From contig CM000433.1 in the NCBI GenBank assembly GCA_000165345.1, positions 704,001-768,000 of the forward strand: a stretch of DNA of 64,000 nt, read 5' to 3'. Shown one piece after another: positions 3,438 through 36,744 of this stretch (position 1 is its first letter; each line of letters starts with the position of its first letter). A program made the translations under genes and the position numbers. The notes beneath the pieces are model-generated. The model saw only the letters and a program-made list of their open reading frames with translations, ran no database searches and was not told the DNA's origin.

Positions 3438-3567
3438 ATTTATTATTATTTAAGAATTTTTTTCAAGGGCATGACAAAAATTAAGAATTACAAAAATACC
3501 CGCCCAATTATAACCATCATTAAGACGTGTTAATAAATTATTATTATTTTTTTAATTCAGGCCAAAA

Positions 3568-3688
3568 TTACACCGTACTGATGTGATATCTCGTACCAAT
3601 CTTTCGCCTTTTACTAAAGATTGCCGTGTCACATCAGCTTGGTAGTTATTACCAGGTCATAATATTTGGGGAGTTTCTACACTCCGAC
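3568..3688 (+). ncRNA. U5: U5 spliceosomal snRNA
   Basis: Invariant U5 loop 1 with flanking stem, AATCTTTCGCCTTTTACTAAAGATTGCCGTG, at 3597-3629. A 9-bp stem CTGATGTGA/TCACATCAG encloses it. Sm-like site AATATTTGG at 3661-3669, followed by a 3' hairpin GGAGTttctacACTCC at 3670-3685. Ends approximate by a few nt. Confidence 0.8.
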
Positions 3689-4009
3689 AACAATAAAACC
3701 AATGTATCATTTAAATTATCCCTTGAATTTAGGTTCTCTTTCTCAGCGTTCTTTCGTGTTTCTGCCGCTTGCATGCACTTGGGTACATGTGACGTTGTGC
3801 ATGCCTCCTCTCTTTGCCCACTCACTGCCAGGGATTCCTATACCGGCATTGCAAATCATCCACATGCAGCCGGGTTGTCAGGAGTGTTGACGTGTCAGGG
3901 CGCCAGCCCCCTACCTGTACATTAGCATGTATGGAGGACAAATATAACTAGGACACTAAAGGCAAGACTACTTCAAGGCTAACTACATTAAGTGATACGT
4001 TGGTTTTAT

Positions 4010-4153
4010 TGTAGCCCTAGAGGGCCCCAGAAATTGCCATTAATCTATTAGAGAATAGAATAATAGAAGTTTAAATTGGTGTAGTTTTCAACTAGCAGAA
4101 ATCGCACATCCGCTGAGCGTCATTTGTAACGATATCTCCCCTTGCGTAAGGCT
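4010..4153 (-). ncRNA. U4: U4 spliceosomal snRNA
   Basis: Minus-strand RNA AGCCUUACGCAAGGGGAGAUAUCGUUACAAAUGACGCUCAGCGGAUGUGCGAUUUCUGCUAGUUGAAAACUACACC... aligns with human U4 (AGCUUUGCGCAGUGGCAGUAUCGUAGCCAAUGAGG...GCGAUUAUUGCUAAUUGAAAACU). A 3' Sm site GGCAAUUUCUGG is followed by a terminal hairpin GGCCCucuaGGGCU. Length ~144 nt, close to the canonical 145. Confidence 0.8.
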
Positions 4154-4214
4154 AATTCTCACCTAAATGAATTTTCTCAAACTTAATTTTTAATACTACT
4201 AAATGATGGGTCTC

Positions 4215-4227
4215 AAATGGCGGGCAA
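4215..4227. promoter_or_regulatory. E2F-like motif aaatggcgggcaa, ~110 bp upstream of the 4337 ATG
   Basis: Inverted copy of the 3425-3437 motif. The two flank the divergent intergenic region that holds the snRNA genes. Confidence 0.35.
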
Positions 4228-4336
4228 AGTTACAAATGAGTCAAAATATAACAATCTAAAAAAAATAAAGTCAACAATAGCCAATTTAATATTATATTTG
4301 GTTTTATATTGAATTAAATATTGTTTTTTCCACCAA

Positions 4337-5521
4337 ATGTACAAAGATGAAGAAAAAGAAAGTAAAAATAGTTATCATGGAAATGGTGAAAGCTTGAATT
4401 CTGATTCCTATATTTTAAAAAGTGACGAAATTGAAACAATAAGATCTTTAATAAAAGGAAAAAGAAAAGAATTAATTTTAGAAGAAAATGATAAAAACAA
4501 TAATCAAATAAGACCTTCAAAGATGAAAAGAAAGGAAACTCATAAAAATGATCTTAAAAATGGTTCTATTGAGGAAATAACAAAACCAAAAATACGAGAT
4601 TACTTTACATGTATGTTATTTATTACATTGAAATTTCAAGATATCTTTACAAAGAAAAATTCGGAAATTATAATTGGAGAGTTAAATTTTAATGAACTAT
4701 TTATCAAATTTTCATTAAATATCTTAACTGAGGTATATAAAAAATACTATTACAAAGCAGAAATTTCTTCTGAAAAACCTAAAATATATCCAACTTTTGA
4801 TTTTCAAGAAATTAAAAAAAATCCAAATGGACAAAAGATATATAACAATATTTGCTCTAATTCTAACTTTGATCTTATTGTTAATGATACAAATTATCAA
4901 GTAAATCAAAGAGTTGGATTACATTTAAGCTTAACAAGAAATCATCATATTAGTAAGAAATTATCAATCAAATTTTTGGAAAATATTATCAAAAAATTCA
5001 ATAATTGCCTGGATATTAATAATGAAATTCCAGAAAAAGCCTTTATATCACAAAGAATTGAAATTCAAACTAAATTAAAATCCTTTTGTATTCTTTTAGA
5101 CTATGATTCTGTTATTATTTTGAAAAATACATACCTATATTCCAAAAATACTAATATTAATGGTGGTATCTTTGTAGCAATTCAAATTCATCATTCAAGC
5201 AAAATTAATTACTTGAATCCTATTATTGAAATTATTGATCAAGCTTGTATTGATTTAGGTATACAACCACTTTATTCTGAAAGAGTTTTCCATATTTCAT
5301 TATTTTATATTAAAAAGTCTGATCTATATTTGGGAAATGCTGGCCATAATTCCAAAAGTGTAATTGAAACTTACAACTTTAAAGAATATCTTTCATCTAA
5401 ACTCATTTCTTCTTCTATTAATGATTTCTCAACCCTAACCACAAAAAATAATATCGTTTGGATTAATAAACTTGTATTCAGAGTTGGAATATATGAGTAC
5501 TATTTACTTCTTGATTCTTGA
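4337..5521 (+). CDS. Hypothetical 394-aa protein; candidate 2H phosphoesterase (Usb1/LigT-like, two H-x-S-x motifs)
   Basis: Genuine ATG ORF (MYKDEEKESK...). Two H-h-S-h tetrapeptides, GLHLSLTRN and VFHISLFYIKK, are ~120 aa apart, as in the 2H/HVSL phosphoesterase family. Otherwise no recognisable domain. Confidence 0.5.
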   Translation: MYKDEEKESKNSYHGNGESLNSDSYILKSDEIETIRSLIKGKRKELILEENDKNNNQIRPSKMKRKETHKNDLKNGSIEEITKPKIRDYFTCMLFITLKFQDIFTKKNSEIIIGELNFNELFIKFSLNILTEVYKKYYYKAEISSEKPKIYPTFDFQEIKKNPNGQKIYNNICSNSNFDLIVNDTNYQVNQRVGLHLSLTRNHHISKKLSIKFLENIIKKFNNCLDINNEIPEKAFISQRIEIQTKLKSFCILLDYDSVIILKNTYLYSKNTNINGGIFVAIQIHHSSKINYLNPIIEIIDQACIDLGIQPLYSERVFHISLFYIKKSDLYLGNAGHNSKSVIETYNFKEYLSSKLISSSINDFSTLTTKNNIVWINKLVFRVGIYEYYLLLDS

Positions 5522-5548
5522 TATATTTTATACTACTTCTTATTTAAT

Positions 5549-8500
5549 CTAACTCTTTTGAGTTCTTGTTCTTGGAACAATTTGGAAAGTTACTCTAGTC
5601 TTGAAAACGACTTTCTCATCCAATTCACTTATTATACAATAAATTGTGAAAGTCTTTCTGTTCATCTGAACTAACTGTCCTCCATATGGCATCACCAAAT
5701 CTTCCCTATTATTATTATTCTTTAATAACTCCTTTGCAATCATATCTATTTCAATTCCAGTTCCACCTCCAGCTTTTCCTAAACTTCCCAAGTTATTATC
5801 AGATTCATTTGATAAATTTTTAATATTATTCAATAATTTTTTTTGAGACTTATTCATTCCCGTATTAATATCACTGCTATTACTATTATTCATCGTTTGG
5901 TTTGCTCCTTCATTCATATTAATTATAGAATTCCTAATTAAAGAAGAATGCCTCTCATCATTTTCCAAAGTACTTGAGACTCTCCTAATATATCCAATTT
6001 TGTTCTGAGTATGAGCTGGAATTGTTCCAGAAATTATACCAGTTTCTGTTGAAAATGTTAATCCAGTATATTTTGGTAATGCTGGTTTAATACACCATCT
6101 TTTGCTTACATCATCTTCAATGAATATATTATGTTGCTGATTAATTATTCCTTTAGAGCAATAGAATATTGGCTCTAAATTTACTTGATCTTGACTATAA
6201 AATGTTATACAAGGTCTTGGATCGTTAACATCTGATCTAAATTTACTTGGAAGAGAATATCCAATCTTTAATATTGGACCCTTTTCTGTAATTATTATCA
6301 GTCCATTCGGAGTACCTCCTGTTCCTCCTCCCTTGTTATAATTCTTATTCTTACTAATTATTCTTGAGCTTGATTTCTTCTCCCTTAAAACCAATATATT
6401 CTCAGAATTTGAAGAATATTGAGAATCTTCGCCTAATTCAATCTGTGACATTGATGTTTCAATATCTCCTCCCATAATATCTTCAATCCTTTCTTTCATT
6501 CTTTCTTCAATCTCTTTACTATCCTGTGAAGCTCCTGTTTGTAATCCAACAGCACCAACAATTGCTAATACTGATTGTACTGCAGTACTTAATTCATTTC
6601 TCATACCTTCAAAAGTCTTTATTGCTATACCTACAAAAATACAAAATAATAATAATGAAGCTGATGTTGCCATTATTATTAATCCTTGTCTCTCATAACT
6701 TAGTCCTACATGATCATGAACTAATTGTGGTAAGAATAATCCAAAAAGTACTTCAAATCCATCCAATAATTCCTGTAAATCTAGTGATTTATCTTGATTT
6801 AAATCCATTAAATCAAACATTCTTTTTACTTCTCTTACTGGAAGCTGAATCCTCATATTATTTAATAATTCACAAAGTAAATCAAATGATAATCCTTCTT
6901 TACTTAAAGCTGCTAATATTGAAACCATATCTCCTGGACGTATTAAACCATATCTATTACTATATTCCAAACATTTTGATGTTGCTTCAATTATTGATGA
7001 TTCTGGCTTTTCTAGATGTAAACCAATATTTAATACTACTTTAATTGCTTCTGGCCATAATCCTGTCATTAATTTTTTTGGAAGTAATCTTCTAACTGAA
7101 TCAATGTTTATTACTACTCCTTCCATTGGATCCATTCCTGTTGGATCCATTAATATTCTTAAGTGAACTGATTCTTTTAGATTATTTCTAATCTTACTCT
7201 TTCTAATATAGGATTCCATATTTTCCATGGAGTCTTCAAATTGATTCATTAAATTATTACCAATCTTTTTATCTCTCCTAAATCTTCCTCCTATAGACAT
7301 TCTTTTTGAGAATTTCTTTTTAGATGAAGAACCTAATTCACCTTCTATTTGATATCCTGGTTTAAGCTTATATTTGCTTTCACCTCCTATTTTATCTTTT
7401 TCAGCTATTCCTTCACCAAAAGCCTCATAGTGTTCAAATCCTTTATTATGAATACCAATCAATCCACCTCCTCTATTCATGAGCTGTTGTTCACTATTAT
7501 ATTCATCTCGTTCATAATCCTCATCTTCATACATATAATGTTCCTCACCTTTCCTATTTCCTCTAGCTCTTAAATACTTATTCATTCCATCTTCCAATAC
7601 ACCTCTTGAATTCATCTGTTCATCTTCTTCTGCTTCTCTTTCCATATTTTTCCCATAATCCCTATATGGTACTATAAAAGAAGTAATATTTAAAGGATCT
7701 TTTGGTAAACTTTTCCAAATTGATTCCACTCCAGAATTTGGAATTGTTATCTTAGCCAAAGCTAAAAACCTTCTTAGCATTTCATGAGTAAAATATCCTC
7801 TATAAGAATGAACATCTTGAGCATCAAAATGTTGCTTGTTTTGGTTAGTTACCTCATATAAAGACGATTTGAATGTACCACTAATCAAATTACTTCCAGA
7901 AATTGTCATTCCTACTCCTCTAAATAACCCTGTACCTCCATAAGTTGTATTATTCACACTATTTTCATTACTATTACTACCCTTATTGACATTATTATTA
8001 GTGCTATTATTAGGATTATTACAACCAACATTACTCATTCTTCTTCCACTCAAGTATTCTTCTTCTCCATTATTCTTATAAATTGGTTGAAGATAAACCA
8101 TAATAATGAAATCTCTTGCTAAAGAAGCATTAACAAATGGTCTTACAGTTCCCATATTCAAATTCAAACATAATAACAACCATAATATATAACTTTGGAG
8201 TTTATGACTTGAGAATCCCAAAGTAGTTAAAGTTGTATCAAATATATCAAATGATATGTTAAAATCTACCATCTTGTTACTACTACCTGTCATCTTCTCA
8301 AAGTAGTCATCCTGATTCTTGTTGATCATTTTCTTATTGTTACTCGTTACTCCTTCATCTTCATTTGTATCCTGTATATTATTGTTATTGAGTTGATTAA
8401 AGTTATTACTTTGTGATCTACTAAATAGCAAAAGTTTACCTTGCTCAATTTCACCCTTGTTAGATCCTTTTTGACCACCAGAACTCTTATTTACACTTTC

Positions 8501-11500
8501 TAAATATGACAGATCAGTCGTCTTATGAATATATAATCTCTTGTGATCTTTAATATACTCATGCAATTGAGATCTTCCAATAAATCCACACCTCAAAACT
8601 GCAATTTTATGGAAATCTTTAACTACATCCTCTGGTATACCTTTAACATTACTTAATAAAGTCCAGTCCAATAGCTCACCATAATTTGAAGATCTCTCTG
8701 GAATCATTTTATTCAAAAATCCATCTTCTAAAATTGTCACACCTCCTCCTAAAGTTGTTCCTGAAAATGGCAAATCACCCCTTTCTCCTCCTCCAGCTAA
8801 ACCTTGTAGGCTAAATCCTATATCGTCTAAGTTACCAATTCCAAGATCACCACCTCTACCATGTACCTTATCATTCATTGCTGTACCAAATATATTACTT
8901 TGATTACTCAAAAGAGAACCTTGTCCTCCAATAATTCCTCCATTAATTGAATTTGAAATAATATTATCAAAGTTAGTACTTTTATGTATATGAAAAACAT
9001 TAATATTTGGACCCAATCCAAGCTCACTAAGTCTTTCCAAAGGATTTCCTGATCCCATCAATAACATATTATTACTAATTAAACCCAAGAAATGCATTGA
9101 TACAAGTAAACCCGAAAAATTCAAACATCTTTCTGTCAAAGTTTGTAATGCCAAATCTGATAATTCTACAGGTAAAAATCCACTTCCATTACTCAATTTA
9201 GTGAATACACTCTTTACATGTTGAAGATTCCTTTCCTCTATATAGTTAAGATTAGTTAAACTGACAGAATTATCATAAGTTACACTTGGAAGACGATCAG
9301 TTGATAAATTGATTCCACAGAGTCGAATTAAGAATATAAAAGCGTCCATCCAAAGGTATTTGGAAACAATTACTTGAATTACTTGCTCCAAAGTTGTTTC
9401 AGAAAACTCAATAGTATTATTACTCGATGATGAATTTGTAACTCCACCTGCTCCTCCATCACCTTCTCCATTCCCTGTAGCTCCTCCACCAATCAAAATA
9501 CCATTAATTTCACTCATTTTTGAATCAACTAATGCTGAATGAAATACTTCAACACTAGTTTTTACCTCTCTTTGATGAATTATATTTGCATTATTCTTCT
9601 GGTTCTTACCTACTGAAGATATATTCTGATTACTATTAGAAAAATCTGATACTAAAACTCCTCCAGATCTAGAACTTGTAATAGAATTAGCTCTCCTCAA
9701 GACTGTTTGGATTGCTCCTAAAATAACTTTCATTCCTTGATGATTTCTTGGTAAAATAAGTACTTCTTCAGTAATTAAACTATGAGATCTTTTCCAAGGT
9801 ATATCTACAGTAAGCATATCAACATCGGTATCTTTTAATACACTTAAAGCATACAATGCTTTAGTTATCAAAGATACTTGAAATTGTAATGATGCATTTC
9901 CTTGAGATAATGATATAATTTCAAGTGTATCCTTAACATTACGTTGATTTTCGACTCTATACTCTTTTAAAGCATCAACAACTTGAGCTGCAGTTTTAGG
10001 AGGAGCTGATACAAAGTATTCATGTATAGAAAGTGAAAGCTCATTTAAAGATGGTCCATAGAAGATATTTACAATTCTTGCAGCTTTTCTTCTGATTAAT
10101 TTTGGATAAACAATATCCAAAAAGTGATCAGCTCCTTTTTTAACTCTGCTTTTATCAAATAATCTTCCAATTATATGGTTAAATAAGATCCAGATATCTT
10201 GTCTAATCTCATTGTGAAGAATTCTCATAAGCTGTAAGAACTTGGTTGTATCATTGTCAGAGTTTTTGTTTTGAGATGTCATACTCTTAATGCATGCACT
10301 ATCTCCTCCAATTCCATTATCTTTTAACCCATTTCCATTAATATTAGTTGTTGTACCTCCAATTCCTCCTCCTCCTCCTCCTGCAGGATTAGCTATCATA
10401 CTACTACTGCTTGCAGCATTTATAAAACTTGAACTTGATCCATTATTCAAGTTTGAGTTAGATTGATTTAATAACCAGGTTGAAGATGAAGTTTTGAAGT
10501 TTCTATTTGATGATCCTGTTCTTCCAATAATATTCAAATTATTTCCCTGTTTCTCAAACATACTTAAGCTTCCAGAGAATGAATATTCATCATGAAAAGT
10601 ACTATTTGAAATGATATTTCCATCATTAATAATATCTAAATCATCGTTACTTAAAGAATGAGAATTACCAAAAGTTAATACATTTCTTCTTCCAAATATA
10701 GGAATCAATAAAGCAACCTGAGCATCAAATACCTTATAAGCCAAAGAATGAATATCTCTCAAAGCTGTATCAATATCTGGAGTCCTTAAATTTCTGGTAG
10801 CAAATGTAAATATATATTTTAGCTTTTGTACATTCATCTCACGTAATAATTGAAACTTTGTATGCTTACTAGAGTTACCAACTCCTCCTCTAATATTATT
10901 ACTAATATTATTAGAACTCTTTCCTCTAATTGAAAAACCTCCAAAAGAATCCCCAACTCCTTCAAAAGTACTAGAAGATGATCTTCCATAATGATTTAAT
11001 GAACATAGCTTTAAATTATTTAAATCCCCAGTAATTACACCAATATCTGAATCATTCACAACTTTTCCAAAATGGAAATGATTACCTGTATTCTTTTTAC
11101 TATTTTCAAAACTTGAAGAAAGTAAATCTATCCATAAATAGCCTTTCTGATCTATCATAGGCTTAAATCCTGTTTTTATTGTATGGCAAGAACTAGCATT
11201 GAAAATATCCTCACTAAACTCATCATCATACTCTTCCTCATCTATTCCACCATTTTCTTGTGCTCCTTTATCATCAATAACTCCTCTATCTATTATAAAT
11301 TGATCATGAGCTTGGCTCATAATCATCTCACCTTCATTCTCACTTGTACCTCCTCTAATTGGAATAACCTTCTCATAATCAGAATCCAAATTCCCAGGAT
11401 ACAATGAATACAATATTATAATATCTTCCACAGAAAATCCTTGTTGATCATCTACATTTGTATTACAAATAGAATTAAAATAATCAATAATATCTTGGTA

Positions 11501-14500
11501 TTTGGTATTTAATCCATTAAATAAAAATCTATCATAGTGTAAGTTAATTACCCAGTATAGAAACTCTTCCCTATTCAAAAATCCATCCTCATCCATATCA
11601 AAGAAGTCAAATATGAGCTTTACTTTAGCTTCATCTGATAAAGATTCACTTGGAGGAAAGATTGGAACTTTGACTATAGCACATTTGTACCAAGTTTCAA
11701 GCTGCAAAAAATCTTCAACTTTATATCCAAACCTTGGACCATACTTAACACCATCTTGTAAAAGAGCTACATCAAATCCTTCCAATAAGCCATCAACCTT
11801 ATCATTTTCAGAAATAACATCCTTAACTGTAGCTAATTTCATTCCATAATACATTCTTAAAGTCTCTTGAACTCCAATAATCTCTCCTTTTGAATTAATC
11901 CCAAATAAGCTTTTAGGTGCAACTGGCAATATCTTCAAATATTCCCATTTGGAACAATATAATGAACAATAATCAGATATTGGAAGCTTTGACCCATAAG
12001 ATTTAATTCTTGTACTATGCTTTAACTCCATTGAACCATCCAAAAAGTCTTTGAGAGCTTGTTTATTATTAGAATTCACACCTAATGATCCCTCTATTCC
12101 ACTTTTATCCCTTGAGATTTGTTGTTTTCCTACATTATTTAATATTGCTTTTGCCCATAAGTATTTGTGATTACTAATCTCACAATGTAATTGTTCAGAA
12201 ACTGCAGCTCTAAGATCATTTGGATCAGCAGAATTTGAATTACTAGTAAATGTTTGATTTGTTGCCTCAAACCAATGTCCTAATGCAATTGAAATCAAAG
12301 ACTGGAGATTTTCAGCAATAAATCTATCAACAATTCCTCTTGAAGAACTAAAGTTATTCCATAAGCTTACTATAACAAATCCCAAAGCCAAAAGCATTAC
12401 CACATAAGGAAGTATATTGTCTGAATTAATTAAAGAACCCAATAAGAACCATAAAAGGAACATTGAAATTGCTAATAATGTTAGAAACATTGAAAATAAT
12501 GTTACAAACATTCCAATTTCTTCAAAAAGTACCAACAATTTTATCCAGTAATACCTCAAATTCCTCCTCCATCTCCAAATTAAACCTTTACCTGTTATTT
12601 CTGAATCTTCATTATTCTCCTCTTGTCTTTTATTATAAGATGAAGGTGATGAACTGGAAGCAATGAATGTAGTATGAATAATTATAAGATGTAAAACTGA
12701 TAATATCAATAAGTATGGAATAGGAAATGGTAAAGACATAAAAAAGTCCCAAGTTGGATTATATACAATATCTGAAAAATAATTTGAACTGATATGAGAA
12801 TGTGGATTTGAAATGGAAAGAGTTGATAAGTAATTATAAACCAGAGTTAGTATGATACAAGTTACTGGGAATATTGAAAGTATTGAAATTTGAAAACCAT
12901 AAATCATTATATTTAGTATTACTGGTAAAATTGAAAATTGAAAAGAATACCAAATTTCATGTATTAATTCTTGTCTTTGTTTTATTTTTGCTATATATAT
13001 TGGAACTAATATTCCTCCATAACCAATATTATATCCTGAAATCCTATCAAGTTTTTCATTATTTACCCCATTAATAATATCTGAATCAATTATTTCAGTT
13101 CCTGATTTCTGTCTTAAATTTCCTTCATCATCTAATTGAGTACTACCAAGGTGTTCAGTTTCCCCTACTTTATTCCAATTTGATATTGTTGTTAATTCAG
13201 TATACTCACAATTACTATTTCTCATAGAATGGATTGATCCATCAATAACTTGGTTATTTGAAACACTATTCTTCAAATTTCGAATTAAATTAGTAGATGA
13301 ACGTTTTAATTGAGCAATTTTTAAAGACATTAAAGCTTTAGACCATCGTTGTTTTGATTTGGATATACTTTTTCTCTCTCTATCCTTGAGTTTTTGTTGT
13401 TTGCTGCTTTCTTTTGTTGTATATATTAGACTTAAAATAGCTTTCCAACTTCTGAACTTGCTTGATCTCCAAGTAGATTTTCTTCTGAAAACTGTTGAAT
13501 AATTTGAATGAACTAATAAACCCGAAGAAATATTAATAGTTTTCGCATCTTCATTTTTTTGGATTGAATTATAATCTTCTTTATTAAAGCAAAATAAGCA
13601 TTTCAAATTTGAGGAAAAGCTACATATTGAATTAACCATTTTTGAAATGGATATACTTCTTAAAAATAGCATTATAGAATCAATTTTGAAGTAACTGACA
13701 ACCTTAATTGTTAAAGGTAAGAATATACTAGTATCCAATATAATTCCATTCTTGAGCAAAAATCTATCAGGAGAAGACGACCACCAATAAGTTGAGTAAT
13801 TTAAAGTACAATTTTCAATAATGTCGATTGATTTTCTTTGAGATTTTAAAAATATACAATTATCCAATTCTTTATCTTCACCTCTTAATATATATCTACT
13901 TCCTGTAGTTATAGCCAATGCTTTAGCACTAATCATAAACTGGCCAGGACAGTAAGTTCCTCTTTGATGAGTTTCTGTAGGAATTGGTTTTCTTATATTT
14001 TCACAAACTCTTAAACTGCTAGGTGAAACCAGGAATCCATACTTATTTAAATCATTATAAGTAACAACTTCCATTTCAAGTCCAAATGTTCTGCAAAATG
14101 TTGCGTACAATAACTCAAATTCACTCAAAGTTGTTAATCTTATGACTTTGAATGAATTAGAAACTGCTACTATTATTTGTTTATTGCCTAATGAAGATCT
14201 TCTTCCTGCTCCTGTACCTGTACCTGTTCCTGACCCTGCAAGGAAATATCCAGAATTATCATGAGTAACTGATCCCTTTGGAACAAAGATTTTTCCTTGA
14301 ATAGTTACATTGGATGGAATATCATCTTTACTTACTGCCATAACTAAATAAACATCCCTTGAAGATGATCTTTGTGAAATAAATGGTACATCGACTGACC
14401 ATGCAAAAGTACCTGTATTTGGAATTGATTTGTCTCCATGCAAAGAAGTTAAATGTGTATCTGTATAATGATCAAAAATATGTAAATGCAACTTTTTAGG

Positions 14501-17500
14501 AATGTAGCTTGAACTATCCTTCTTTAACTCCCTCCAAATCCATGTTAATTGAGTATCACTGCCATTAATAATAATCTTACCAGGGATATCATTAGTGAAT
14601 CTTGGTTTGTTTGAGTTCAAGGCTGAGTTTGAAGAATTTGGAGTCTCTTTGTTCTTTTCCAAGTTGACAGGATCATTGTTTAACGCAGCTCCTCCTGTCT
14701 TTTGTCTATTAATGATTGAATTAGCTGAATGATTATATATCAAACGACCACTATTTTCATCACTTTTTTTTTTCACCATTTCAATATCAATACTTTCTAT
14801 ATTATTTAAAGGATTTGAGTCAATAATAATTTCCTCAGAAAGGTCATGCCTTAAATATTGAACCCAAAATGATCTATCTAAAAGCATTGAAAGCTCTCCC
14901 CATTGTCCTCCCTCTACATAATATAGTTTTACTGAAATATCCACAAACTTGTTAATAGAGACAGTATCGTTTGAAATTGTATCATGAACTTGAATGATAT
15001 CATTTTCTTGAAGTTCTGAATGATAACCCATTTTTGAATGAATTCTTCTGCCATGTACAACATCATCACTATCATCGTGCATGGCTACCAAATCCCCCTC
15101 AAAACTATCCTCATTATTGCTGTCATTAACTAACGATTTCCAAGCTATTTCTATCAATTTGGAGCATTTCACATCTCCATTTGCCACGACTTGGCCACTA
15201 TCTGCCTCTTGTAACTCAAACAATATTCGCTTTTGAGATATTAAACTTTGCTCCAAATATAAGCTGCTTGTTACTGCACATGAATTATTAACTTTCTCAT
15301 CCCTTCCAAATCCCCCAATACTCAATCTACGGCTTTCCCCCTTAGAATTGTGATTTATCTTATTACGAAGAATATAAACATTATTTCCTCCTCCTAATTC
15401 TCTCCCATTCACTGTATTCACATTTTCATTATAGTTACCAAATAAGTTAATATTTTCCAAACAGCCCTCAATTCGAACCTTATCTGTATCGAATGACTTA
15501 TTCTTAAATGTATAACTCTTAAGTGAGGAAAAATCATCCTCTTCTTCTGTAATGCTGGATGCATGCAAACTGCCAAACCTTGCCGCCGAACGTCCCTCCC
15601 CAGCTCCACCTTTACTTGTATAATTCTCAGAAATCTTCCCTGCTCCTCCGCTCACTCCACTTGAAATCTCGCTTGTGACAAACTCATCCGGAAAATCTCT
15701 CACTAATCTTGCTATCAACACATACTTTTTATTCCCTCTCACCTCTGAATACCCACATTCAATACCGGAACTATAGTTTGGCGCGCGCGCCTCTCTGTTA
15801 ATGCTTTGGTTAGAGAAGGACCTTTCGAATCTTTGTTCACCATTTATGTCAGTGACTATTCCATCCATTTTGTGAGCTGAGTTGGTCATTTCTTCCCTTC
15901 CAAATACTCCCATATTGTTGCTTTCGTCATTTATTAAATTATTTTTATCGTCATCATCATTATCCTCGAACCCATAATCAAAAATGTTTTCTTGAGAAAT
16001 GCTATTACGTTTCTTCCTCTTCCCACCAAGAACATCAAAAATTATTATCTCAATATCTCTAAAATAGAACGGAATTCCGAAAGGAGAGTAGTGATCTGTG
16101 TTTTTGTTTATGAATAAATTAAGTGAGGATCTTTTCTTAGGCAAAAACCTCCTTAAGAAAAGTAGTGGGAAATCTACAAACTTCATCTTGTTTCCTGGAA
16201 TAATCTCATTACTCCAATTGCTCTGCTCAATAATATGGCCAGAAGATGATATTCTTAGAATTCTTAATCTATACTTTTGATCAGAAATTAGTTCATATGG
16301 CATTGTCACCTCAAAGATGCATTTATCATTATATTTCATTGGAACAAACAACTCTTGTTGATTTCTTCCCAAATGTGTAGTTAATGACGCCTCGTTTGCT
16401 GGAATATAAAGGAAGAATTCAGAAAGCCCTGACTCATTTGTTACTTTCTCTTCATAACTATTGCTATTATTCCCACTATATTGAGATAAGTTCTCTACCT
16501 GTTTAATATATATACAAAGCTTCTCATTATCACGCCTTTTTTGTCTCTGATTCCATCTCAATAATAATCCAAAGCTTGGCCATTGAATTGTAGAAACCAT
16601 TACAATCCATTCTGCAGCCTCTGATGTCCTAAAATCATGATTTAGACGGTGTGAAGCCGTACTTACTAGTTGCATTTCTCTAATACCTGTTAAAAACCAT
16701 GGGAAAACATAGTAATATAGTACCCACATTGCTGCTGCTGCTACCAAAATACCACATAATATATTCAAAGATAGAGAAACTATGTAACCTTGTAAGTCAT
16801 TTGCTGTTACAAGGTCTTTTAATATTGCATCATTTTCAGCTGTAAATATGTATTGTTCGATTGTCTGATATGGATTATCGGATAAGACTTGTGGATTAGA
16901 TTCAAAATCATCATCTGCTAACATAGAACTTTTTAGAATCTTCTTGGATAGTTTGCTCCAGCCTGGAATTAACCATCCTGGGAATATTATACCCTCTAAA
17001 AATGATATCATTGAGGAAAACAATTTAAATACTTTCTTTAGTTGACTTTTTAATTTCTTCATTACCCATTTTGTCGTTAAAAACAAGTTATCAAATATGC
17101 CAACCTTATTTCTTTCTCCTAATCCCAACCCTGAATTATAAGCCTTAATTTCTTCACCATCATTCTGAGTCCATACAATTACGCTTGGTTGTTGAGCTAT
17201 GCCTACGATTGCTGTATTTATTACACTAAAGATGTTTTCAGTTATTGAAGATTCACAAGCTTTAATTCTACTTGATTTCCCCATATAATTGCCTACATCA
17301 CTTATACTTTTGATATTTGCAATATCTTCATGAATATTTGAGTCCTGGTTAATGTAATAATCTTCACTTATATTTTCATCAATGTAAATTGACTCATGTA
17401 AGTTATTTGAAAGTAATCTTGGTCCATTCTTAATTCCAAATATCTTCTTCAAATCGCTTAATTTACTTTCTTGCTTATTTTTCTCACCATTAGAGGATTT

Positions 17501-19891
17501 TGAATCATCTGGACCAATCATCTTTGATATTCTGCTTGTCATATTTGCCAGTATTCCTCCTTTCCCTTGACCTTCTACTTTATCATCAGAATTTTTATGA
17601 ATTATATTATCAGCTATTCCAATATCCTTACTGATACTTTGATTAGTTATATTTGCATAAATTCCACTAATTCCTCCATTAATATTACCTGTATTAGAAG
17701 GATTATCATCAACATTGATTACATCTAGATCTTCCAAATCTGAATGACTCACTGGAACCATACACCTTAATCCAAGAATATGAATAAATAGAGTGTATAT
17801 CCTTGGCATTAAAAGTCCTCCTGATAATAAAACCAAAGCATATGGATCTCGAATAAAAGCTCTTGAAGATACTGCCTTCCAAGTTCCCCTAGGATATTCT
17901 CTATTTCCTAAAACATTAATATAAAGTACCCATGGACTTGCAAGATCCTCTTGAAGCCATTTTGAAAACCCATTAAATCTTGATTTTGAAAACGCAAGTA
18001 AATGTGGATCTTTCCATTGGTGTCTTCCTGCCCAAGTAATAAGTTCATCCGATATGTTATTAAAATCTGAACTTGATTCAAAGTTTGAATAAGCATTTAT
18101 ATATACTGGTGGAATACTTCCTTGAATGTTAATTCTTGTATTAATTGAAGAACCTGAAAGTTTATTATCCAAGAATGATGAATCTGGATTCAGAGTTGCA
18201 ACAACTGATGCAGTTTTATAATACCCATGACCATCTAAATCATTTGATTTGCTTTCAAGCTTGACTTTAACATGCTCAGCTCTAAAAACTGCTAATTCTG
18301 CAATTCTGACTGGCATAGTAACAACAATTGGTGTTCTACTATTAATATATATTGGAGCTCCTCTACTTTCTATAAACACATTCCTACGACCTGAATCTTG
18401 GAGATTTGGGAGATCTATAGAAGCCCAACCATCTGAAATTGTGAGTGAAATATTTGGTGAATATACATCTTTTAAATCAAAAGTCCCATGTAATGCTTCC
18501 AAGTGAAATAGTGATTTAGCCTTGATCGGAATCGATGACGAAACTCTCATATATGTTGAAGATGGCACAAACTTGACAGAAAGTTCGTCAAACTGGAAGT
18601 TATTTGCCAAGAAAAAGTTTATTGAACATTGAAAATAATCACCAGTATTAGTTTGGTGTAATTTTATTGATAAATTTGAATCATTATTAAAATTCCAAGG
18701 TCTAGGACTTGAATCACAGTATTCTTTATAATCCTTCCAAGAAATATTCTTTATATTATAATCACTATAAGTATCCCATGGAAGAATATATCTTTTCAAT
18801 ATCCAGAAGAAAGTTCCGTGAGAGCATATATATTCGAACTTATCTTTCTTCCTAGATGGTATACTGTACCTTCCAGAACTACCATAGTACATATGTGATT
18901 TGGAAAATAATCTCCAAGATCTAACTTTAATATAGCTCAGATCACTAGTTGAATTAAGGAATTGAATATGGCAATGTTTAACATCCAAAGTTACATTTAG
19001 TGGTCTATTTATTGAATTTTCAAAAATATCAGAGTCTTGTTTAATATTGAATAAAGGAAAAAGCTTCTTTAATAAGTTACTTTTACCTATTAATCCCATA
19101 TCATTGTTACCAGTTCTTGATACCACTGTTGGATTCTTTGATCTCAGTAATGAAGGAACTAATCCTTCAGTTTGTTCATTCTTTGACTCAAAAATACTTC
19201 CCAAAGGGTATAATGGAATAATATCATTAACAATATACTCATCTAGAAATATTGAAAAAGTATAAACCATTGAAATTAAAAAGAATATCCAAAGAAATAA
19301 AATTGGACGTACATTCAATTTTTGTAATGTGATTACTGGAATTCCAAAAGATACCGGAAATTCCCTTATTACTAAAAATTCGGAGCTTGGTAAACTTAGT
19401 ATTTCTCTCTTTTGAATACGTCTCGATTTTCCTCTGCTCTTTAATAACATCAATAATTCACGACTATTATCTTCATATATTTCGTCTTCAGAATCCAATT
19501 CTTCAGATTCTGTTTCGTCCTCACATTCTTCAAGGCCATCATCTAACTCATCATCAGAATTCTCTTCTGCTTCATTATAATCTCTTTCTTTCAGATCCCC
19601 TCCTTTTTGGTCAGCAGATAATCCATATTTATTAAATACCCTGCTTTCATAATTCTCACTATTCATTAACTTTCCATTTATCAGCTCCCTTTCCACATCT
19701 AAATAGTCACTATTAATAATTTGGTGAAATTTTGTGATAATACAATCATCATATTCTTCTTGCTCTAGAACATGATACTTTTCTGGTCTTACTGTTGCAC
19801 TTTCTATATATTCATCTGGGTACTTTTCATATTGTTCTAAAGCTCTTTCAGAATGAGGTCTTTGACAAATTCTAGAATCATAATCCACCAT
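5549..19891 (-). CDS. Giant 4780-aa multi-pass membrane protein with EF-hand motifs (function unknown, possibly channel-like)
   Basis: Single ATG-initiated ORF on the minus strand. An acidic N-terminus is followed by a TM helix (ILFLWIFFLISMVYTFSIFL). Dense TM cluster around nt ~12400-13030 (RISGYNIGYGGILVPIY...LLALGFVIVSLWNNF). Canonical EF-hand loop FDFFDMDEDGFLNREEF at nt ~11575-11625. Second EF-hand DLMDLNQDKSLDLQELLDGF plus C-terminal TM helices at nt ~6600-6830. Long Asn/Ser/Gly-rich low-complexity tracts. Confidence 0.85.
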   Translation of the reverse strand: MVDYDSRICQRPHSERALEQYEKYPDEYIESATVRPEKYHVLEQEEYDDCIITKFHQIINSDYLDVERELINGKLMNSENYESRVFNKYGLSADQKGGDLKERDYNEAEENSDDELDDGLEECEDETESEELDSEDEIYEDNSRELLMLLKSRGKSRRIQKREILSLPSSEFLVIREFPVSFGIPVITLQKLNVRPILFLWIFFLISMVYTFSIFLDEYIVNDIIPLYPLGSIFESKNEQTEGLVPSLLRSKNPTVVSRTGNNDMGLIGKSNLLKKLFPLFNIKQDSDIFENSINRPLNVTLDVKHCHIQFLNSTSDLSYIKVRSWRLFSKSHMYYGSSGRYSIPSRKKDKFEYICSHGTFFWILKRYILPWDTYSDYNIKNISWKDYKEYCDSSPRPWNFNNDSNLSIKLHQTNTGDYFQCSINFFLANNFQFDELSVKFVPSSTYMRVSSSIPIKAKSLFHLEALHGTFDLKDVYSPNISLTISDGWASIDLPNLQDSGRRNVFIESRGAPIYINSRTPIVVTMPVRIAELAVFRAEHVKVKLESKSNDLDGHGYYKTASVVATLNPDSSFLDNKLSGSSINTRINIQGSIPPVYINAYSNFESSSDFNNISDELITWAGRHQWKDPHLLAFSKSRFNGFSKWLQEDLASPWVLYINVLGNREYPRGTWKAVSSRAFIRDPYALVLLSGGLLMPRIYTLFIHILGLRCMVPVSHSDLEDLDVINVDDNPSNTGNINGGISGIYANITNQSISKDIGIADNIIHKNSDDKVEGQGKGGILANMTSRISKMIGPDDSKSSNGEKNKQESKLSDLKKIFGIKNGPRLLSNNLHESIYIDENISEDYYINQDSNIHEDIANIKSISDVGNYMGKSSRIKACESSITENIFSVINTAIVGIAQQPSVIVWTQNDGEEIKAYNSGLGLGERNKVGIFDNLFLTTKWVMKKLKSQLKKVFKLFSSMISFLEGIIFPGWLIPGWSKLSKKILKSSMLADDDFESNPQVLSDNPYQTIEQYIFTAENDAILKDLVTANDLQGYIVSLSLNILCGILVAAAAMWVLYYYVFPWFLTGIREMQLVSTASHRLNHDFRTSEAAEWIVMVSTIQWPSFGLLLRWNQRQKRRDNEKLCIYIKQVENLSQYSGNNSNSYEEKVTNESGLSEFFLYIPANEASLTTHLGRNQQELFVPMKYNDKCIFEVTMPYELISDQKYRLRILRISSSGHIIEQSNWSNEIIPGNKMKFVDFPLLFLRRFLPKKRSSLNLFINKNTDHYSPFGIPFYFRDIEIIIFDVLGGKRKKRNSISQENIFDYGFEDNDDDDKNNLINDESNNMGVFGREEMTNSAHKMDGIVTDINGEQRFERSFSNQSINREARAPNYSSGIECGYSEVRGNKKYVLIARLVRDFPDEFVTSEISSGVSGGAGKISENYTSKGGAGEGRSAARFGSLHASSITEEEDDFSSLKSYTFKNKSFDTDKVRIEGCLENINLFGNYNENVNTVNGRELGGGNNVYILRNKINHNSKGESRRLSIGGFGRDEKVNNSCAVTSSLYLEQSLISQKRILFELQEADSGQVVANGDVKCSKLIEIAWKSLVNDSNNEDSFEGDLVAMHDDSDDVVHGRRIHSKMGYHSELQENDIIQVHDTISNDTVSINKFVDISVKLYYVEGGQWGELSMLLDRSFWVQYLRHDLSEEIIIDSNPLNNIESIDIEMVKKKSDENSGRLIYNHSANSIINRQKTGGAALNNDPVNLEKNKETPNSSNSALNSNKPRFTNDIPGKIIINGSDTQLTWIWRELKKDSSSYIPKKLHLHIFDHYTDTHLTSLHGDKSIPNTGTFAWSVDVPFISQRSSSRDVYLVMAVSKDDIPSNVTIQGKIFVPKGSVTHDNSGYFLAGSGTGTGTGAGRRSSLGNKQIIVAVSNSFKVIRLTTLSEFELLYATFCRTFGLEMEVVTYNDLNKYGFLVSPSSLRVCENIRKPIPTETHQRGTYCPGQFMISAKALAITTGSRYILRGEDKELDNCIFLKSQRKSIDIIENCTLNYSTYWWSSSPDRFLLKNGIILDTSIFLPLTIKVVSYFKIDSIMLFLRSISISKMVNSICSFSSNLKCLFCFNKEDYNSIQKNEDAKTINISSGLLVHSNYSTVFRRKSTWRSSKFRSWKAILSLIYTTKESSKQQKLKDRERKSISKSKQRWSKALMSLKIAQLKRSSTNLIRNLKNSVSNNQVIDGSIHSMRNSNCEYTELTTISNWNKVGETEHLGSTQLDDEGNLRQKSGTEIIDSDIINGVNNEKLDRISGYNIGYGGILVPIYIAKIKQRQELIHEIWYSFQFSILPVILNIMIYGFQISILSIFPVTCIILTLVYNYLSTLSISNPHSHISSNYFSDIVYNPTWDFFMSLPFPIPYLLILSVLHLIIIHTTFIASSSSPSSYNKRQEENNEDSEITGKGLIWRWRRNLRYYWIKLLVLFEEIGMFVTLFSMFLTLLAISMFLLWFLLGSLINSDNILPYVVMLLALGFVIVSLWNNFSSSRGIVDRFIAENLQSLISIALGHWFEATNQTFTSNSNSADPNDLRAAVSEQLHCEISNHKYLWAKAILNNVGKQQISRDKSGIEGSLGVNSNNKQALKDFLDGSMELKHSTRIKSYGSKLPISDYCSLYCSKWEYLKILPVAPKSLFGINSKGEIIGVQETLRMYYGMKLATVKDVISENDKVDGLLEGFDVALLQDGVKYGPRFGYKVEDFLQLETWYKCAIVKVPIFPPSESLSDEAKVKLIFDFFDMDEDGFLNREEFLYWVINLHYDRFLFNGLNTKYQDIIDYFNSICNTNVDDQQGFSVEDIIILYSLYPGNLDSDYEKVIPIRGGTSENEGEMIMSQAHDQFIIDRGVIDDKGAQENGGIDEEEYDDEFSEDIFNASSCHTIKTGFKPMIDQKGYLWIDLLSSSFENSKKNTGNHFHFGKVVNDSDIGVITGDLNNLKLCSLNHYGRSSSSTFEGVGDSFGGFSIRGKSSNNISNNIRGGVGNSSKHTKFQLLREMNVQKLKYIFTFATRNLRTPDIDTALRDIHSLAYKVFDAQVALLIPIFGRRNVLTFGNSHSLSNDDLDIINDGNIISNSTFHDEYSFSGSLSMFEKQGNNLNIIGRTGSSNRNFKTSSSTWLLNQSNSNLNNGSSSSFINAASSSSMIANPAGGGGGGIGGTTTNINGNGLKDNGIGGDSACIKSMTSQNKNSDNDTTKFLQLMRILHNEIRQDIWILFNHIIGRLFDKSRVKKGADHFLDIVYPKLIRRKAARIVNIFYGPSLNELSLSIHEYFVSAPPKTAAQVVDALKEYRVENQRNVKDTLEIISLSQGNASLQFQVSLITKALYALSVLKDTDVDMLTVDIPWKRSHSLITEEVLILPRNHQGMKVILGAIQTVLRRANSITSSRSGGVLVSDFSNSNQNISSVGKNQKNNANIIHQREVKTSVEVFHSALVDSKMSEINGILIGGGATGNGEGDGGAGGVTNSSSSNNTIEFSETTLEQVIQVIVSKYLWMDAFIFLIRLCGINLSTDRLPSVTYDNSVSLTNLNYIEERNLQHVKSVFTKLSNGSGFLPVELSDLALQTLTERCLNFSGLLVSMHFLGLISNNMLLMGSGNPLERLSELGLGPNINVFHIHKSTNFDNIISNSINGGIIGGQGSLLSNQSNIFGTAMNDKVHGRGGDLGIGNLDDIGFSLQGLAGGGERGDLPFSGTTLGGGVTILEDGFLNKMIPERSSNYGELLDWTLLSNVKGIPEDVVKDFHKIAVLRCGFIGRSQLHEYIKDHKRLYIHKTTDLSYLESVNKSSGGQKGSNKGEIEQGKLLLFSRSQSNNFNQLNNNNIQDTNEDEGVTSNNKKMINKNQDDYFEKMTGSSNKMVDFNISFDIFDTTLTTLGFSSHKLQSYILWLLLCLNLNMGTVRPFVNASLARDFIIMVYLQPIYKNNGEEEYLSGRRMSNVGCNNPNNSTNNNVNKGSNSNENSVNNTTYGGTGLFRGVGMTISGSNLISGTFKSSLYEVTNQNKQHFDAQDVHSYRGYFTHEMLRRFLALAKITIPNSGVESIWKSLPKDPLNITSFIVPYRDYGKNMEREAEEDEQMNSRGVLEDGMNKYLRARGNRKGEEHYMYEDEDYERDEYNSEQQLMNRGGGLIGIHNKGFEHYEAFGEGIAEKDKIGGESKYKLKPGYQIEGELGSSSKKKFSKRMSIGGRFRRDKKIGNNLMNQFEDSMENMESYIRKSKIRNNLKESVHLRILMDPTGMDPMEGVVINIDSVRRLLPKKLMTGLWPEAIKVVLNIGLHLEKPESSIIEATSKCLEYSNRYGLIRPGDMVSILAALSKEGLSFDLLCELLNNMRIQLPVREVKRMFDLMDLNQDKSLDLQELLDGFEVLFGLFLPQLVHDHVGLSYERQGLIIMATSASLLLFCIFVGIAIKTFEGMRNELSTAVQSVLAIVGAVGLQTGASQDSKEIEERMKERIEDIMGGDIETSMSQIELGEDSQYSSNSENILVLREKKSSSRIISKNKNYNKGGGTGGTPNGLIIITEKGPILKIGYSLPSKFRSDVNDPRPCITFYSQDQVNLEPIFYCSKGIINQQHNIFIEDDVSKRWCIKPALPKYTGLTFSTETGIISGTIPAHTQNKIGYIRRVSSTLENDERHSSLIRNSIINMNEGANQTMNNSNSSDINTGMNKSQKKLLNNIKNLSNESDNNLGSLGKAGGGTGIEIDMIAKELLKNNNNREDLVMPYGGQLVQMNRKTFTIYCIISELDEKVVFKTRVTFQIVPRTRTQKS

Positions 19892-21105: not shown

Positions 21106-24100
21106 TCAACAGAATAGACCAATTGAATCAACAAAACTGTCAATATTTTGGCTAAATAATTTATCTCCAACAGTCTCGCAAGGAAAATCTTGAACAAGAT
21201 TTGAAGGAGCTAGTATATAAGCTGAAAATGGAGACATATTGAGAAAAACTGTTTGCTTGAGAGATTTTGTATTGACAAATCTATATGGAGATTCGTGTTG
21301 GAAATTGTTTGGAAATTTATTATTAACAATAGAATTAATATTTGAAGGCTCTGAGTTAGGGCTAAAAATCTTGAATCCTTGCTCAGATTTGATAGAAGTG
21401 GAACAAAAGCTGCCCGTGATATGATATTTTTTGTCTCCTCCAAATCTCTCATCTTGTGTGTCAATTATTAGACTCTGGGGAAGTTCACTTGAAATCCCAA
21501 ATCCATAATCGTTGTAATACTTTTCGCTGAAATTGAAAACAAAAACACAATTATTTCTCTCAATTACCATAACTTTATCCAATTCGTGGCACAATACTAC
21601 ATTAATATTAGATGATGAATTATACAAACTATCAGTTGTTAAGATCTTTAATGAATCTTTTGAATGCTTACCAAGGCTTTTTGCTCTAGAATAGATGTTT
21701 TGAATAGACTTTGAGCCTTCTTTTCCATTGCTTTGGGGGGTTGAGTCCAAATAAATGACAGATTCATTATCTACTGGGCTTGTATTATCCCCTGAGCTCT
21801 CTTCCAATTTTTTAATAATTGCTTCTTTCTTCGCTAAAACCCTCTTAGAAAATGTTGAAGCTGGGGAAATCTCTGAAGGTATTAATGAAGTAGAGGTTCC
21901 TTTAGTTAAAGGTGAAATTGATTTGGAGTAACAAGCTGAAGTAAGCCCATTCTTACCTAACTCTCCCTCACTACCACATGTTAACGGTGAAAGATAATTA
22001 TAATTGACTCCATAATCCTGAATGTTATTCTTGGCTATCCAGCTTAAAAATTTCTCAAGACGAATCAATAGAGTATTAAAGAATTCTAAATGCTTGAATT
22101 TCAAGTTCTTGTTATCTGCCAAATCCCATTTACAACACATTTTGCTATTATCCATGTTATTATTTGGTCTAGGAAGATCAAAAGAATCAGGATTTCCAAA
22201 TTCGGAGCCCATACTTTGAAAGACACCATTTTTTGCGAAAGCCATGGTTGTTAATATAAGTAGCTTTAACTGTTTAAGAGCAAAAACCGACTTGTCAAAA
22301 CCGTCAAATACCATCATATGATGATGAAGAGCATTTTCTCCAAAGGCTTGAAGAATGATGGGTGAATTTGGCTTAAGTATTAAGCTTGGAGTAACATCCA
22401 AAACATTGCACTGTTCAAAATACAAGAAACTAGTTGCTCGTGCAATTGAGTCCCATGAAAATGAATAAGCTGCTTTTACTCTACCTCTGGACCCCATCCA
22501 TCTAGAATGATCAAAGTTTTTCAATATCTCACAGCAACCCCAAGCAATGCTATCCTTACATGGCTCAACCAAGTACCCATCTACGTTCGGAGTTAAGAAA
22601 TCCCTTGGGCCGCCACTAGTAGTAGCAACAACAGGCTTTCCAGCTGTCCATCCTTCCAATACAACAATTCCAAATGGTTCATTTCTTGATGGTACTACTA
22701 CTGCGTCACAAGCCTTGTAAAGTCTGATTACATCATCTCCTGATTTCTTTCCAACAAATCTGATGGAATTGTAAATACCTAACTGATGAGATCTACGCAC
22801 AATCTCATCTTTTTGGTGTCCATCTCCAACTATGATAAATTTCGTATCATTACGATATTTCAAAATGCCAGGTACTGCTTCAATAAGTAAGTCAACTCCT
22901 TTTTGGAGAGCCATTCTTGCAACGCAAAGAAATGTTGGTTCCAAAGGTCCTATGCCGTATTGCCTTTTAACTTCGCCAGCATCATCCATTGCTACACTAT
23001 CAAAGGTCTTGCAATTAATTCCATTAAAAATTACTTTAATTTTGTTTCTATTTATTCCAAATAGTCTACATACTTCCTCTGCAAACACTCCACTTACACA
23101 AATTAGTCGGTCTGCAGTATGGGAGCCTTCTCTCTCTATATCAGAAATTCTACCGCTCTGTCCTCCATATGACTGATTTCCACATCTGCCGTATTCAGTA
23201 GAATGCAATGTTAGGATAGTAGTCCTATTATTATTTCCAATTCTTCTTAAACTTGTTAATACAGGAGCAGCTAACCAATCATGGCAATGACAAATATTGA
23301 ATCGATACCCATTCTTTACATTATTAAGCATTGGATGATCAGGTACCTTTGTTAGCCCATCTTCCCATCTCTGCATATAATATACAAACGAATTACACAT
23401 ATTTATAATTTCAGTAACAAAATCAGAATTCAACTGGAAAGGGCATTCATGGTATAATACTCCATCGTGAACTTTGATTATATATGCTGATGTAGTTGCC
23501 CTTGTGAATAGATGAACCTCGTGGCCAAGTCTTACAAGGCTTGCAGACAACTGTGAAACATGAGGTGAAACCCCACCAACTGAGTGAGTATAAAGACTTT
23601 CCCAACTGAACATTGCAATTCTGAGAGGATTCTGTGTCACCGTCTTCATCTCCAGAGATTCTATCCCATATAAGTTTCTGGAAACAAACTCAACTGTATG
23701 CAAATCAGATTCTCCCATATCCGAGTAACTATTATTATTGCCATTATCATTATCTCCTCTACTGGATATGTTTTGCTTCTCTCTGTTTTTGTATAAAATC
23801 CGAATCTTCTTATTGGAATTCCTCATTTTATCCTCATGGGGAAGCAACTCGTCAATTATATCTTTTTTAATATTTAAACTGGATGGGCTTTTAAGGATGA
23901 TGTCTTGCAAGGAGCTACAAATTGAAGTATTCCAAATATAGTCAAAGCCCATACCTCCATATTCCAAAGGTACTGCAAGCTCTGAACAAGCCTTGTCTTT
24001 GTTTTCTCTTAAGAGAAGCTCATTTGCTATTGTAATAGCAAATGGCTTAATTGTGTGGATTGTATCATTAATCAAAGCCAACACTGAGGAGATATAGGAG

Positions 24101-36679: not shown

Positions 36680-36744
36680 CTGTAAACAGTGTGAATTACT
36701 ATTATTCAAAATCTATATATAATATTTAAATTGAAAGAACTTAC

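Follow-up and report, generated by a model that had tools for sequence, protein, structure and literature searches.

cgd5_3130 of Cryptosporidium parvum: a giant predicted membrane protein with EF-hand motifs from an uncharacterised apicomplexan family

The 64,000 nucleotides of contig CM000433.1 (assembly GCA_000165345.1, forward-strand positions 704,001 to 768,000), hereafter called the window, contain cgd5_3130 of Cryptosporidium parvum, a real, intact and already annotated gene for a protein of 4780 amino acids (aa) with two canonical EF-hand loops and seven conserved hydrophobic segments. On sequence comparison it is the Cryptosporidium member of an uncharacterised apicomplexan family, represented in Cryptosporidium, gregarines, Eimeria and Cardiosporidium, and its mRNA is enriched in females. 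A preliminary description of the window had proposed a Ca-regulated channel or transporter; the giant, single-exon, multi-pass protein with EF-hand motifs stands, but no recognisable channel or transporter family was found. A Ca2+-switched membrane receptor or scaffold of the macrogamete is the explanation preferred here, with about an even chance of being the right one.

Gene, family and expression

The open reading frame (ORF) runs on the minus strand from an ATG to a TAG through 4780 codons with no internal stop (Table 1), in agreement with the intronless gene of about 14.3 kb described earlier. With about 22-37 % G+C, the window is AT-rich. The translation agrees with the C. parvum Iowa II protein XP_626243.1/EAK88017.1 (UniProt Q5CRE3) at every residue and differs by one residue from QOY41839.1/WRK32552.1 (CPATCC_002440) and from the protein of Cryptosporidium sp. 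43IA8, both of which are C. parvum-type sequences. Orthologues of 4740-4781 aa are found in C. hominis, C. meleagridis and C. tyzzeri. As the same ORF is present in other C. parvum-type sequences and orthologues exist in other species, it has been neither split nor created by sequencing errors, a concern raised in the preliminary description. The gene identifier and the neighbour order cgd5_3130, cgd5_3140, cgd5_3160 are given in the supplements of Tandel 2019 (PMC6877471), and this order agrees with the GT1 and actin ORFs of the window, cgd5_3160 being the actin gene. The gene has been known for years in public databases under domain-based names only ('EF-hand domain containing protein'; OrthoMCL OG5_165466), and no functional study of it was found in the searchable literature by accession, E. 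tenella identifier or Sequence Read Archive run.

The extreme length and the low-complexity spacers raise the suspicion of an artefact, that is, a chance ORF, a pseudogene or several genes joined by mis-assembly. However, the probability of 4780 stop-free codons arising by chance is about 1e-193, calculated from the base composition of the minus strand, the ORF recurs in other species and in independent assemblies, colinearity of the orthologues extends over the phylum, conservation is block-wise, and the gene is transcribed. An artefact is thus ruled out for practical purposes, the idea being effectively refuted.

The family became visible only by exhaustive HMMER search. The word-index search with the full-length query recovered Cryptosporidium proteins only, and profiles of the C-terminal block recovered C. 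canis, Eimeria fragments of the family and one Logan fragment, even with 21 family members in the query. The HMMER search, for which the profile was a three-species alignment of aa 2290-3400, gave 48 proteins at E <= 0.001, and for 13 of these E was 1e-30 or lower. Names were looked up for 20 of the 48 matches, and these belonged to C. ryanae, Cardiosporidium cionae, Gregarina niphandrodes, Gregarina sp. Poly1, Blabericola, Selenidium, Ancora and Porospora; no Toxoplasma or Plasmodium protein was among the 20. The Cardiosporidium cionae member (2930 aa) is named 'EF hand domain-containing protein', and G. niphandrodes has two paralogues (P0035, P0050) named 'putative transmembrane protein'. 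At least three paralogues are found in Porospora (P0026/P0066, P0029/P0082/P0083 and P0063/P0093). Gregarines thus carry two to three or more divergent paralogues, and one orthologue was recovered per Cryptosporidium species.

The family is one of proteins of about 3000-4800 aa. In BLASTP comparisons, homologues of about 2600-3900 aa were colinear with the C. parvum protein over almost the full length, in blocks at aa about 300-710, 1000-1290, 1750-2060, 2320-2550, 2650-2860, 3000-3070, 3200-3400, 3500-3640, 3740-3790, 4025-4075 and 4240-4650. This full-length colinear homology, with conserved blocks and helices, places cgd5_3130 in orthogroup OG5_165466. About 61 % of the residues (2898 aa) can be aligned to homologues outside Cryptosporidium. 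A colinear, intron-containing orthologue also lies at about 640-11100 of a Logan contig (L001, SRR9850963, 48 % G+C) from a coccidian-like genome. Over about 10.5 kb it covers the counterparts of aa 1095-4621, and fragments matching MACPF and HSP70 lie downstream of it. The protein is therefore not a lone oddity of Cryptosporidium.

In sorted-cell RNA-seq, cgd5_3130 had mean log2 counts per million of 4.88 in asexual stages, 8.35 in females in vitro and 7.78 in females in vivo, with a log fold change (logFC) in females of 3.47, or about 11-fold (Tandel 2019, PMC6877471). It is listed, under OG5_165466, in the sheet of genes common to C. parvum females and E. tenella gametocytes. This sheet is without a P. 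berghei partner and gives ETH_00013725 and ETH_00025555, the orthologues in E. tenella, as upregulated in gametocytes (PMC6877471). The adjoining glucan synthase gene cgd5_3140 on the same strand is also upregulated in females (logFC 3.85; PMC6877471), so that two adjacent genes of the same orientation are both female-biased.

EF-hand motifs and membrane helices

The PROSITE pattern PS00018 matches exactly two loops of the protein, DMDEDGFLNREEF (EF1) and DLNQDKSLDLQEL (EF2), compared with a mean of 0.03 matches after shuffling of the residues, where none of 2000 shuffles gave two or more. No third loop was found over the whole protein with PS00018 or with a relaxed pattern, and the at least three canonical loops of the preliminary description were an over-count. 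Pfam EF-hand_1 (PF00036) matches the whole protein with 26.7 bits (curated cut-off 25.4), and EF-hand matches recur in six full-length homologues. Both loops retain all PS00018 positions in C. muris and in chipmunk genotype I; the C. muris protein is only 45 % identical overall, yet the loops are essentially unchanged. With a canonical loop and, in the AlphaFold2 (AF2) model, a paired helix-loop-helix fold, the protein belongs to the EF-hand superfamily.

Kyte-Doolittle hydropathy peaks were found at aa 197-215, 1037-1066, 2320-2351, 2387-2405, 2462-2480, 2493-2511 and 4404-4422, and all seven positions are likewise hydrophobic in the homologues. The clusters of transmembrane (TM) helices described earlier are therefore retained, with about eight predicted passes, and so is the placing of the calcium loops near them: EF1 lies about 250 aa past the helix cluster and EF2 28 aa ahead of the last hydrophobic helix, so that both canonical loops are near the most conserved membrane helices. 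The supposed C-terminal helical bundle reduces to one hydrophobic helix and a conserved Gly/Ala-rich segment. Among the best conserved stretches of the protein are TM6-loop-TM7, in the cluster with the family motif LWFLLGxLINSDxxLPYAVM, and TM8 with the Gly/Ala-rich segment, which argues that these helices are more than membrane anchors.

The topology was predicted from lysine and arginine (K/R) residues, counted in the 20 residues that flank each helix at either end and taken as family means. At TM1, K/R are commoner on the N-terminal than on the C-terminal side across the family, the bias in the helix cluster favours four passes, and overall the counts alternate as predicted for a cytosolic N-terminus, eight passes and a cytosolic C-terminus. 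TM1 would accordingly run outwards, TM2 inwards, aa 2313-2358 outwards, aa 2387-2411 inwards, aa 2452-2487 outwards, aa 2494-2514 inwards, TM8 outwards and the Gly/Ala-rich segment inwards. This would leave a single large ectodomain, aa 216-1036, and would place both long arms and both EF-hands in the cytosol. The ectodomain has four family-conserved Cys (307, 422, 710 and 879) and aa 2515-4403 have none, in agreement with a cytosolic placement of the arms. The family-invariant Cys pair 1933/1963 and a C-type-lectin-like fold (aa 2648-2745) both lie in regions predicted to be cytosolic; either the topology model fails or these features occur here outside their usual setting.

The AF2 model of aa 2300-2870, built from 18 sequences (mean predicted local distance difference test score, pLDDT, 68.8; predicted template modelling score, pTM, 0.38), shows in order long helices (pLDDT about 55-84) in the membrane region, then an amphipathic helix, a disordered linker, an alpha/beta domain and the EF-hand pair. 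The helix cluster matched no solved membrane-protein fold.

The GYGG motif, earlier placed within a TM segment, is present but precedes the first helix of the cluster and is not conserved. In C. muris it reads GKSSG, and its place is a basic linker away from the predicted helices. The motif therefore does not form a K+-channel filter, and an Ion_trans_2 match, too, was lacking. The Asn/Ser-rich spacers and the GSGTGTGTGAG run of the preliminary description were both recovered. There are nine insertions rich in Ser, Gly and Asn, 676 aa altogether; the run is GSGGAGVGAG in chipmunk genotype I, and C. muris has no such run. Tandem Repeats Finder gave nothing notable on the coding sequence.

Table 1 Features of cgd5_3130 in the window
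Feature	Residues (aa)	Window positions	Strand	Basis
Complete single-exon coding sequence of cgd5_3130, 4780 aa and TAG stop		5549..19891	-	ORF list, translation, identity to XP_626243.1
Acidic N-terminal region, predicted cytosolic, signal peptide not evident	1-196	19304..19891	-	Sequence; K/R bias at TM1
TM1	197-215	19247..19303	-	Kyte-Doolittle peak 2.37; hydrophobic in homologues
Only large predicted extracytoplasmic domain; conserved core aa ~300-725	216-1036	16784..19246	-	Family alignment, charge bias
TM2	1037-1066	16694..16783	-	Hydropathy, family hydrophobicity, charge bias
Conserved beta-rich domain, weakly FN3-like	1075-1295	16007..16669	-	Family profile against PDB
Immunoglobulin (Ig)-like beta-sandwich	1764-1869	14285..14602	-	AlphaFold model
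GSGTGTGTGAG run, Cryptosporidium-specific loop between Ig-like and alpha/beta domains	1886-1896	14204-14236	-	Sequence
Alpha/beta domain, among the most conserved of the family	1904-2026	13814..14182	-	Alignment, AF2 pLDDT 80-90
GYGG, in basic linker ahead of helix cluster	2290-2293	13013-13024	-	Sequence
Membrane helix cluster: long helix 2313-2358, then 2387-2411, 2452-2487, 2494-2514	2313-2514	12350..12955	-	Hydropathy, conservation, AF2 helices, charge bias
Alpha/beta domain, C-type-lectin/Link/aerolysin-APT-like fold	2648-2745	11657..11950	-	AF2, pLDDT 80-90
EF-hand pair, first loop canonical, second degenerate	2753-2842	11366..11635	-	AF2 model
EF1 canonical loop	2765-2777	11561-11599	-	PS00018
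Predicted cytosolic arm, conserved blocks split by S/G/N-rich spacers	2870-4240	7172..11284	-	Conservation profile, colinear homologue matches
Most conserved family block, MTGLWPEA ... KRMFDLMDxNxDKSL, ending in EF2 loop	4245-4400	6692..7159	-	PS00018, alignment, Pfam
EF2 canonical loop	4363-4375	6767-6805	-	PS00018
TM8 hydrophobic helix (aa 4404-4425) and conserved Gly/Ala-rich STAVQSVLAIVGAVGLQTGA (aa 4435-4454); predicted terminal helical hairpin	4404-4454	6530..6682	-	Kyte-Doolittle peak 2.54, alignment, charge bias
C-terminal domain, He_PIG-type motif PALPKYTGLTFSTETGIISGTIP (aa 4603-4625), low-complexity insertion	4540-4780	5552..6274	-	Pfam, conserved Cys

Candidate functions

In the preferred explanation, the N-terminus would be cytosolic and a single extracytoplasmic domain of about 820 aa would lie between TM1 and TM2. 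A first cytosolic arm of about 1250 aa would carry the FN3-like domain, the Ig-like sandwich and the highly conserved alpha/beta domain, and would be followed by the four-pass helix bundle. A second cytosolic arm of about 1900 aa would start with the C-type-lectin-like domain and the EF-hand pair and close with EF2, ahead of the terminal helical hairpin and an Ig-like C-terminal tail. Ca2+ may occupy the two EF-hands flanking the conserved membrane core and may thereby alter the conformation or partnerships of the core and the ectodomain, which could control a Ca2+-dependent step in macrogamete maturation, fertilisation or oocyst formation. A receptor or scaffold is favoured because EF1 and EF2 bracket the conserved core and because the helices and the LINSD loop are among the best conserved parts.

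Several observations weigh against this explanation. The C-type-lectin-like fold, the He_PIG-type motif and the conserved Cys pairs 1933/1963 and 4561/4752 are features associated rather with extracytoplasmic domains, so the predicted topology could be wrong, and AF2 modelled the helix region with moderate quality only. Both canonical loops have a degenerate partner, and a third canonical loop is lacking. Enrichment of the mRNA in females is no proof that the protein acts in females. The conserved polar or small helix residues (LINSD, AVQS, GAVGLQ) would also suit a pore.

This last point leads to a Ca2+-gated ion channel or transporter, in which TM6-LINSD-TM7, TM8 and the Gly/Ala-rich segment would form a pore, probably oligomeric, gated by the EF-hands. 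Such a pore would fit the strong conservation of the helices and of the short extracytoplasmic loop, with their polar and small residues, and the positions of EF2 close to TM8 and of EF1 after the helix bundle. Moreover, C. parvum has no recognisable IP3R, RyR or Cav homologues (PMC3194816), so that Ca2+ pathways not yet identified must exist in this organism. However, no Pfam ion-transport, PKD/TRP, LETM1 or transporter match was obtained at E <= 1 for the whole protein, at E <= 10 for the helix block or at E <= 0.01 in six homologues. Pfam and PDB profile searches gave EF-hand and otherwise at most marginal FN3 matches, and GYGG failed the test of conservation; membership of a channel or transporter family is thus not supported. 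Furthermore, the few predicted passes are scattered across 4200 residues, and the named matches lacked a Plasmodium or Toxoplasma member. A channel or transporter has no profile, motif or fold in its favour, though the conservation of the helices leaves room for it, and we consider it possible but distinctly less probable than the receptor or scaffold.

A more ambitious version, a new Apicomplexa-only class of giant Ca2+-regulated channel or receptor-channel, would have its pore in the TM6-LINSD-TM7 and TM8/Gly-Ala hairpins, operate in the macrogamete at the time of fertilisation or egg activation and supply one of the Ca2+ pathways missing from Cryptosporidium; we regard this as a long shot.

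A membrane protein with a mainly structural or adhesive role in the gamete, zygote or oocyst, with the ectodomain tethered to cytosolic beta-sandwiches and with EF-hands that are structural or vestigial rather than regulatory, would account for the large conserved ectodomain with its four conserved Cys, the several Ig/FN3-like sandwiches, the degeneration of most EF-like modules and the several paralogues in gregarines. The gene is also listed together with oocyst-wall and adhesive proteins among the C. parvum female and Eimeria gametocyte genes (PMC6877471). Vestigial EF-hands are, however, difficult to reconcile with two loops in which C. muris and chipmunk genotype I have preserved every PS00018 position and with an EF-hand that recurs in six homologues, nor would a mere tether call for membrane helices conserved to this degree. 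This alternative therefore appears unlikely, somewhat more so than a channel or transporter.

Known systems resemble the protein in part. CRMPs (cysteine repeat modular proteins) are giant, lineage-specific, multi-pass apicomplexan proteins with large ectodomains and are receptor-like parts of a complex, but they carry EGF and Kringle modules, are not known to have EF-hands and serve the discharge of rhoptries in invasive stages. Homology to them was not detected. RON11 is several-fold smaller than the cgd5_3130 protein. This rhoptry-neck protein of invasive stages is likewise a polytopic membrane protein of Apicomplexa, with EF-hands in the cytosol, as predicted for cgd5_3130, and a proposed role in tying Ca2+ to a membrane process; its seven transmembrane domains are followed by a C-terminal cytosolic EF-hand pair (PMC11441699). 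In cgd5_3130, compared here by architecture only, the EF-hands lie between and before helices, large ecto- and cytosolic domains are present and the mRNA is female-biased. Miro, a tail-anchored GTPase, shares the EF-hand fold only, cgd5_3130 having no GTPase domain in Pfam.

Polycystins (TRPP), TRP channels and K+ channels are large membrane proteins, some of which carry EF-hands in the cytosol; the ectodomain of polycystin-1 is large. For the voltage-gated-like, TRP and polycystin families, no PKD_channel or Ion_trans match, no conserved pore signature and no fold match was found, and the C. parvum genes that do resemble TRP channels, XP_627518 and XP_627866, lie at different loci (PMC3194816). 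An IP3R or RyR was rejected as no RIH, MIR or SPRY-type Pfam match was obtained and the protein is absent from the channel homologue list of PMC3194816, and a LETM1-like protein as LETM1 gave no Pfam match.

The interest of cgd5_3130 is moderate and lies in its phylum-wide conservation, its domains without assignment and its expression in the female gamete; the membrane core and several soluble domains of the family match nothing characterised. Ca2+ signalling in the sexual development of Cryptosporidium and in oocyst formation, the stage sustaining transmission, is poorly understood, which makes a large parasite-specific membrane protein with a predicted surface domain and EF-hands a reasonable candidate for genetic study. 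A channel, if that were the function, would define a new channel family.

Soluble domains and neighbouring genes

Only EF-hand was found above threshold in Pfam searches of the whole protein, nine sub-segments and six full-length homologues. The whole protein gave two sub-threshold matches to myosin light chains among PDB sequences (E 0.099 and 0.41), and three family profiles run against the same sequences yielded EF-hand proteins, no match or a marginal FN3 match.

The ectodomain appears from the alignment to be beta-rich. The family profile of aa 1075-1295 weakly matched the FN3 domain of Ihog (E 0.14-0.24) and IL-27 beta, and Pfam fn3 matched this region in 1 of 12 members (E 0.014); member-by-member Pfam scans of the blocks 1075-1295 and 1755-2160 gave single-member noise only. 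The alpha/beta domain at aa 1904-2026 has about 25 conserved positions per 100 aa, including the motifs SNxF, LSEFExAYAxFCRT, LEME, RVC, PFE and PGQ, and had no PDB sequence match and no consistent Pfam match, so that its fold is without assignment. C-type lectin-like domains usually carry conserved disulfides. The likeness of aa 2648-2745 to C-type lectin, Link and aerolysin-pertussis-toxin (APT) domains is at the level of the fold, without a sequence-level match and in a domain predicted to be cytosolic; with no family-conserved Cys there, the usual disulfides have no counterpart.

In the second arm the conserved blocks are aa 3000-3075, 3225-3400, 3500-3640, 3735-3795, 3880-3950 and 4015-4080. 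Some are weakly EF-hand-like, and block 4015-4080 aligned to the EF2 block with a probability of 56 % (hhalign). The EF2 block itself, aa 4245-4400, is about 45-52 % identical between C. parvum and the closest gregarine, Eimeria and other homologues. The C-terminal domain has the family-conserved Cys 4561 and 4752. Its He_PIG (PF05345) match scored 18.2 bits, below the cut-off of 24; the motif is also present in one homologue (P0058), and He_PIG gave no match at E <= 0.01 in the six full-length homologues.

The neighbouring ORFs of the window encode a USB1/HVSL-like protein, a GT1/GT5 glucan synthase, actin, an acyl-CoA-synthetase-like enzyme and a PHD-finger protein. On the plus strand, the first of these genes (USB1/HVSL-like, 4337-5521) is convergent with cgd5_3130: only 27 bp lie between its stop codon and that of cgd5_3130, at 5549 on the minus strand, which leaves almost no 3' intergenic space. 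In cgd5_3140 (21106-27315, minus strand, 2069 aa) the GT1/GT4/GT5 starch-synthase-type domains are confined to aa 1232-1612 in the C-terminal third, and the long N-terminal extension is mostly without Pfam assignment apart from a faint alpha-amylase match at aa 880-912. The ORF at 41520-45296 (plus strand, 1258 aa) had no Pfam match at E <= 0.001. Two adjacent ORFs on the minus strand, 35394-36527 and 36713-37594, could be one intron-containing gene or a divergent kinase: the downstream one matches positions 95-145 only of the protein-kinase profile and the upstream one gave no match. The ORF at 56832-63113 (minus strand, 2093 aa) encodes multiple PHD and PHD-like zinc fingers; as delimited mechanically it begins at a TTG, and the true start is probably a downstream ATG.

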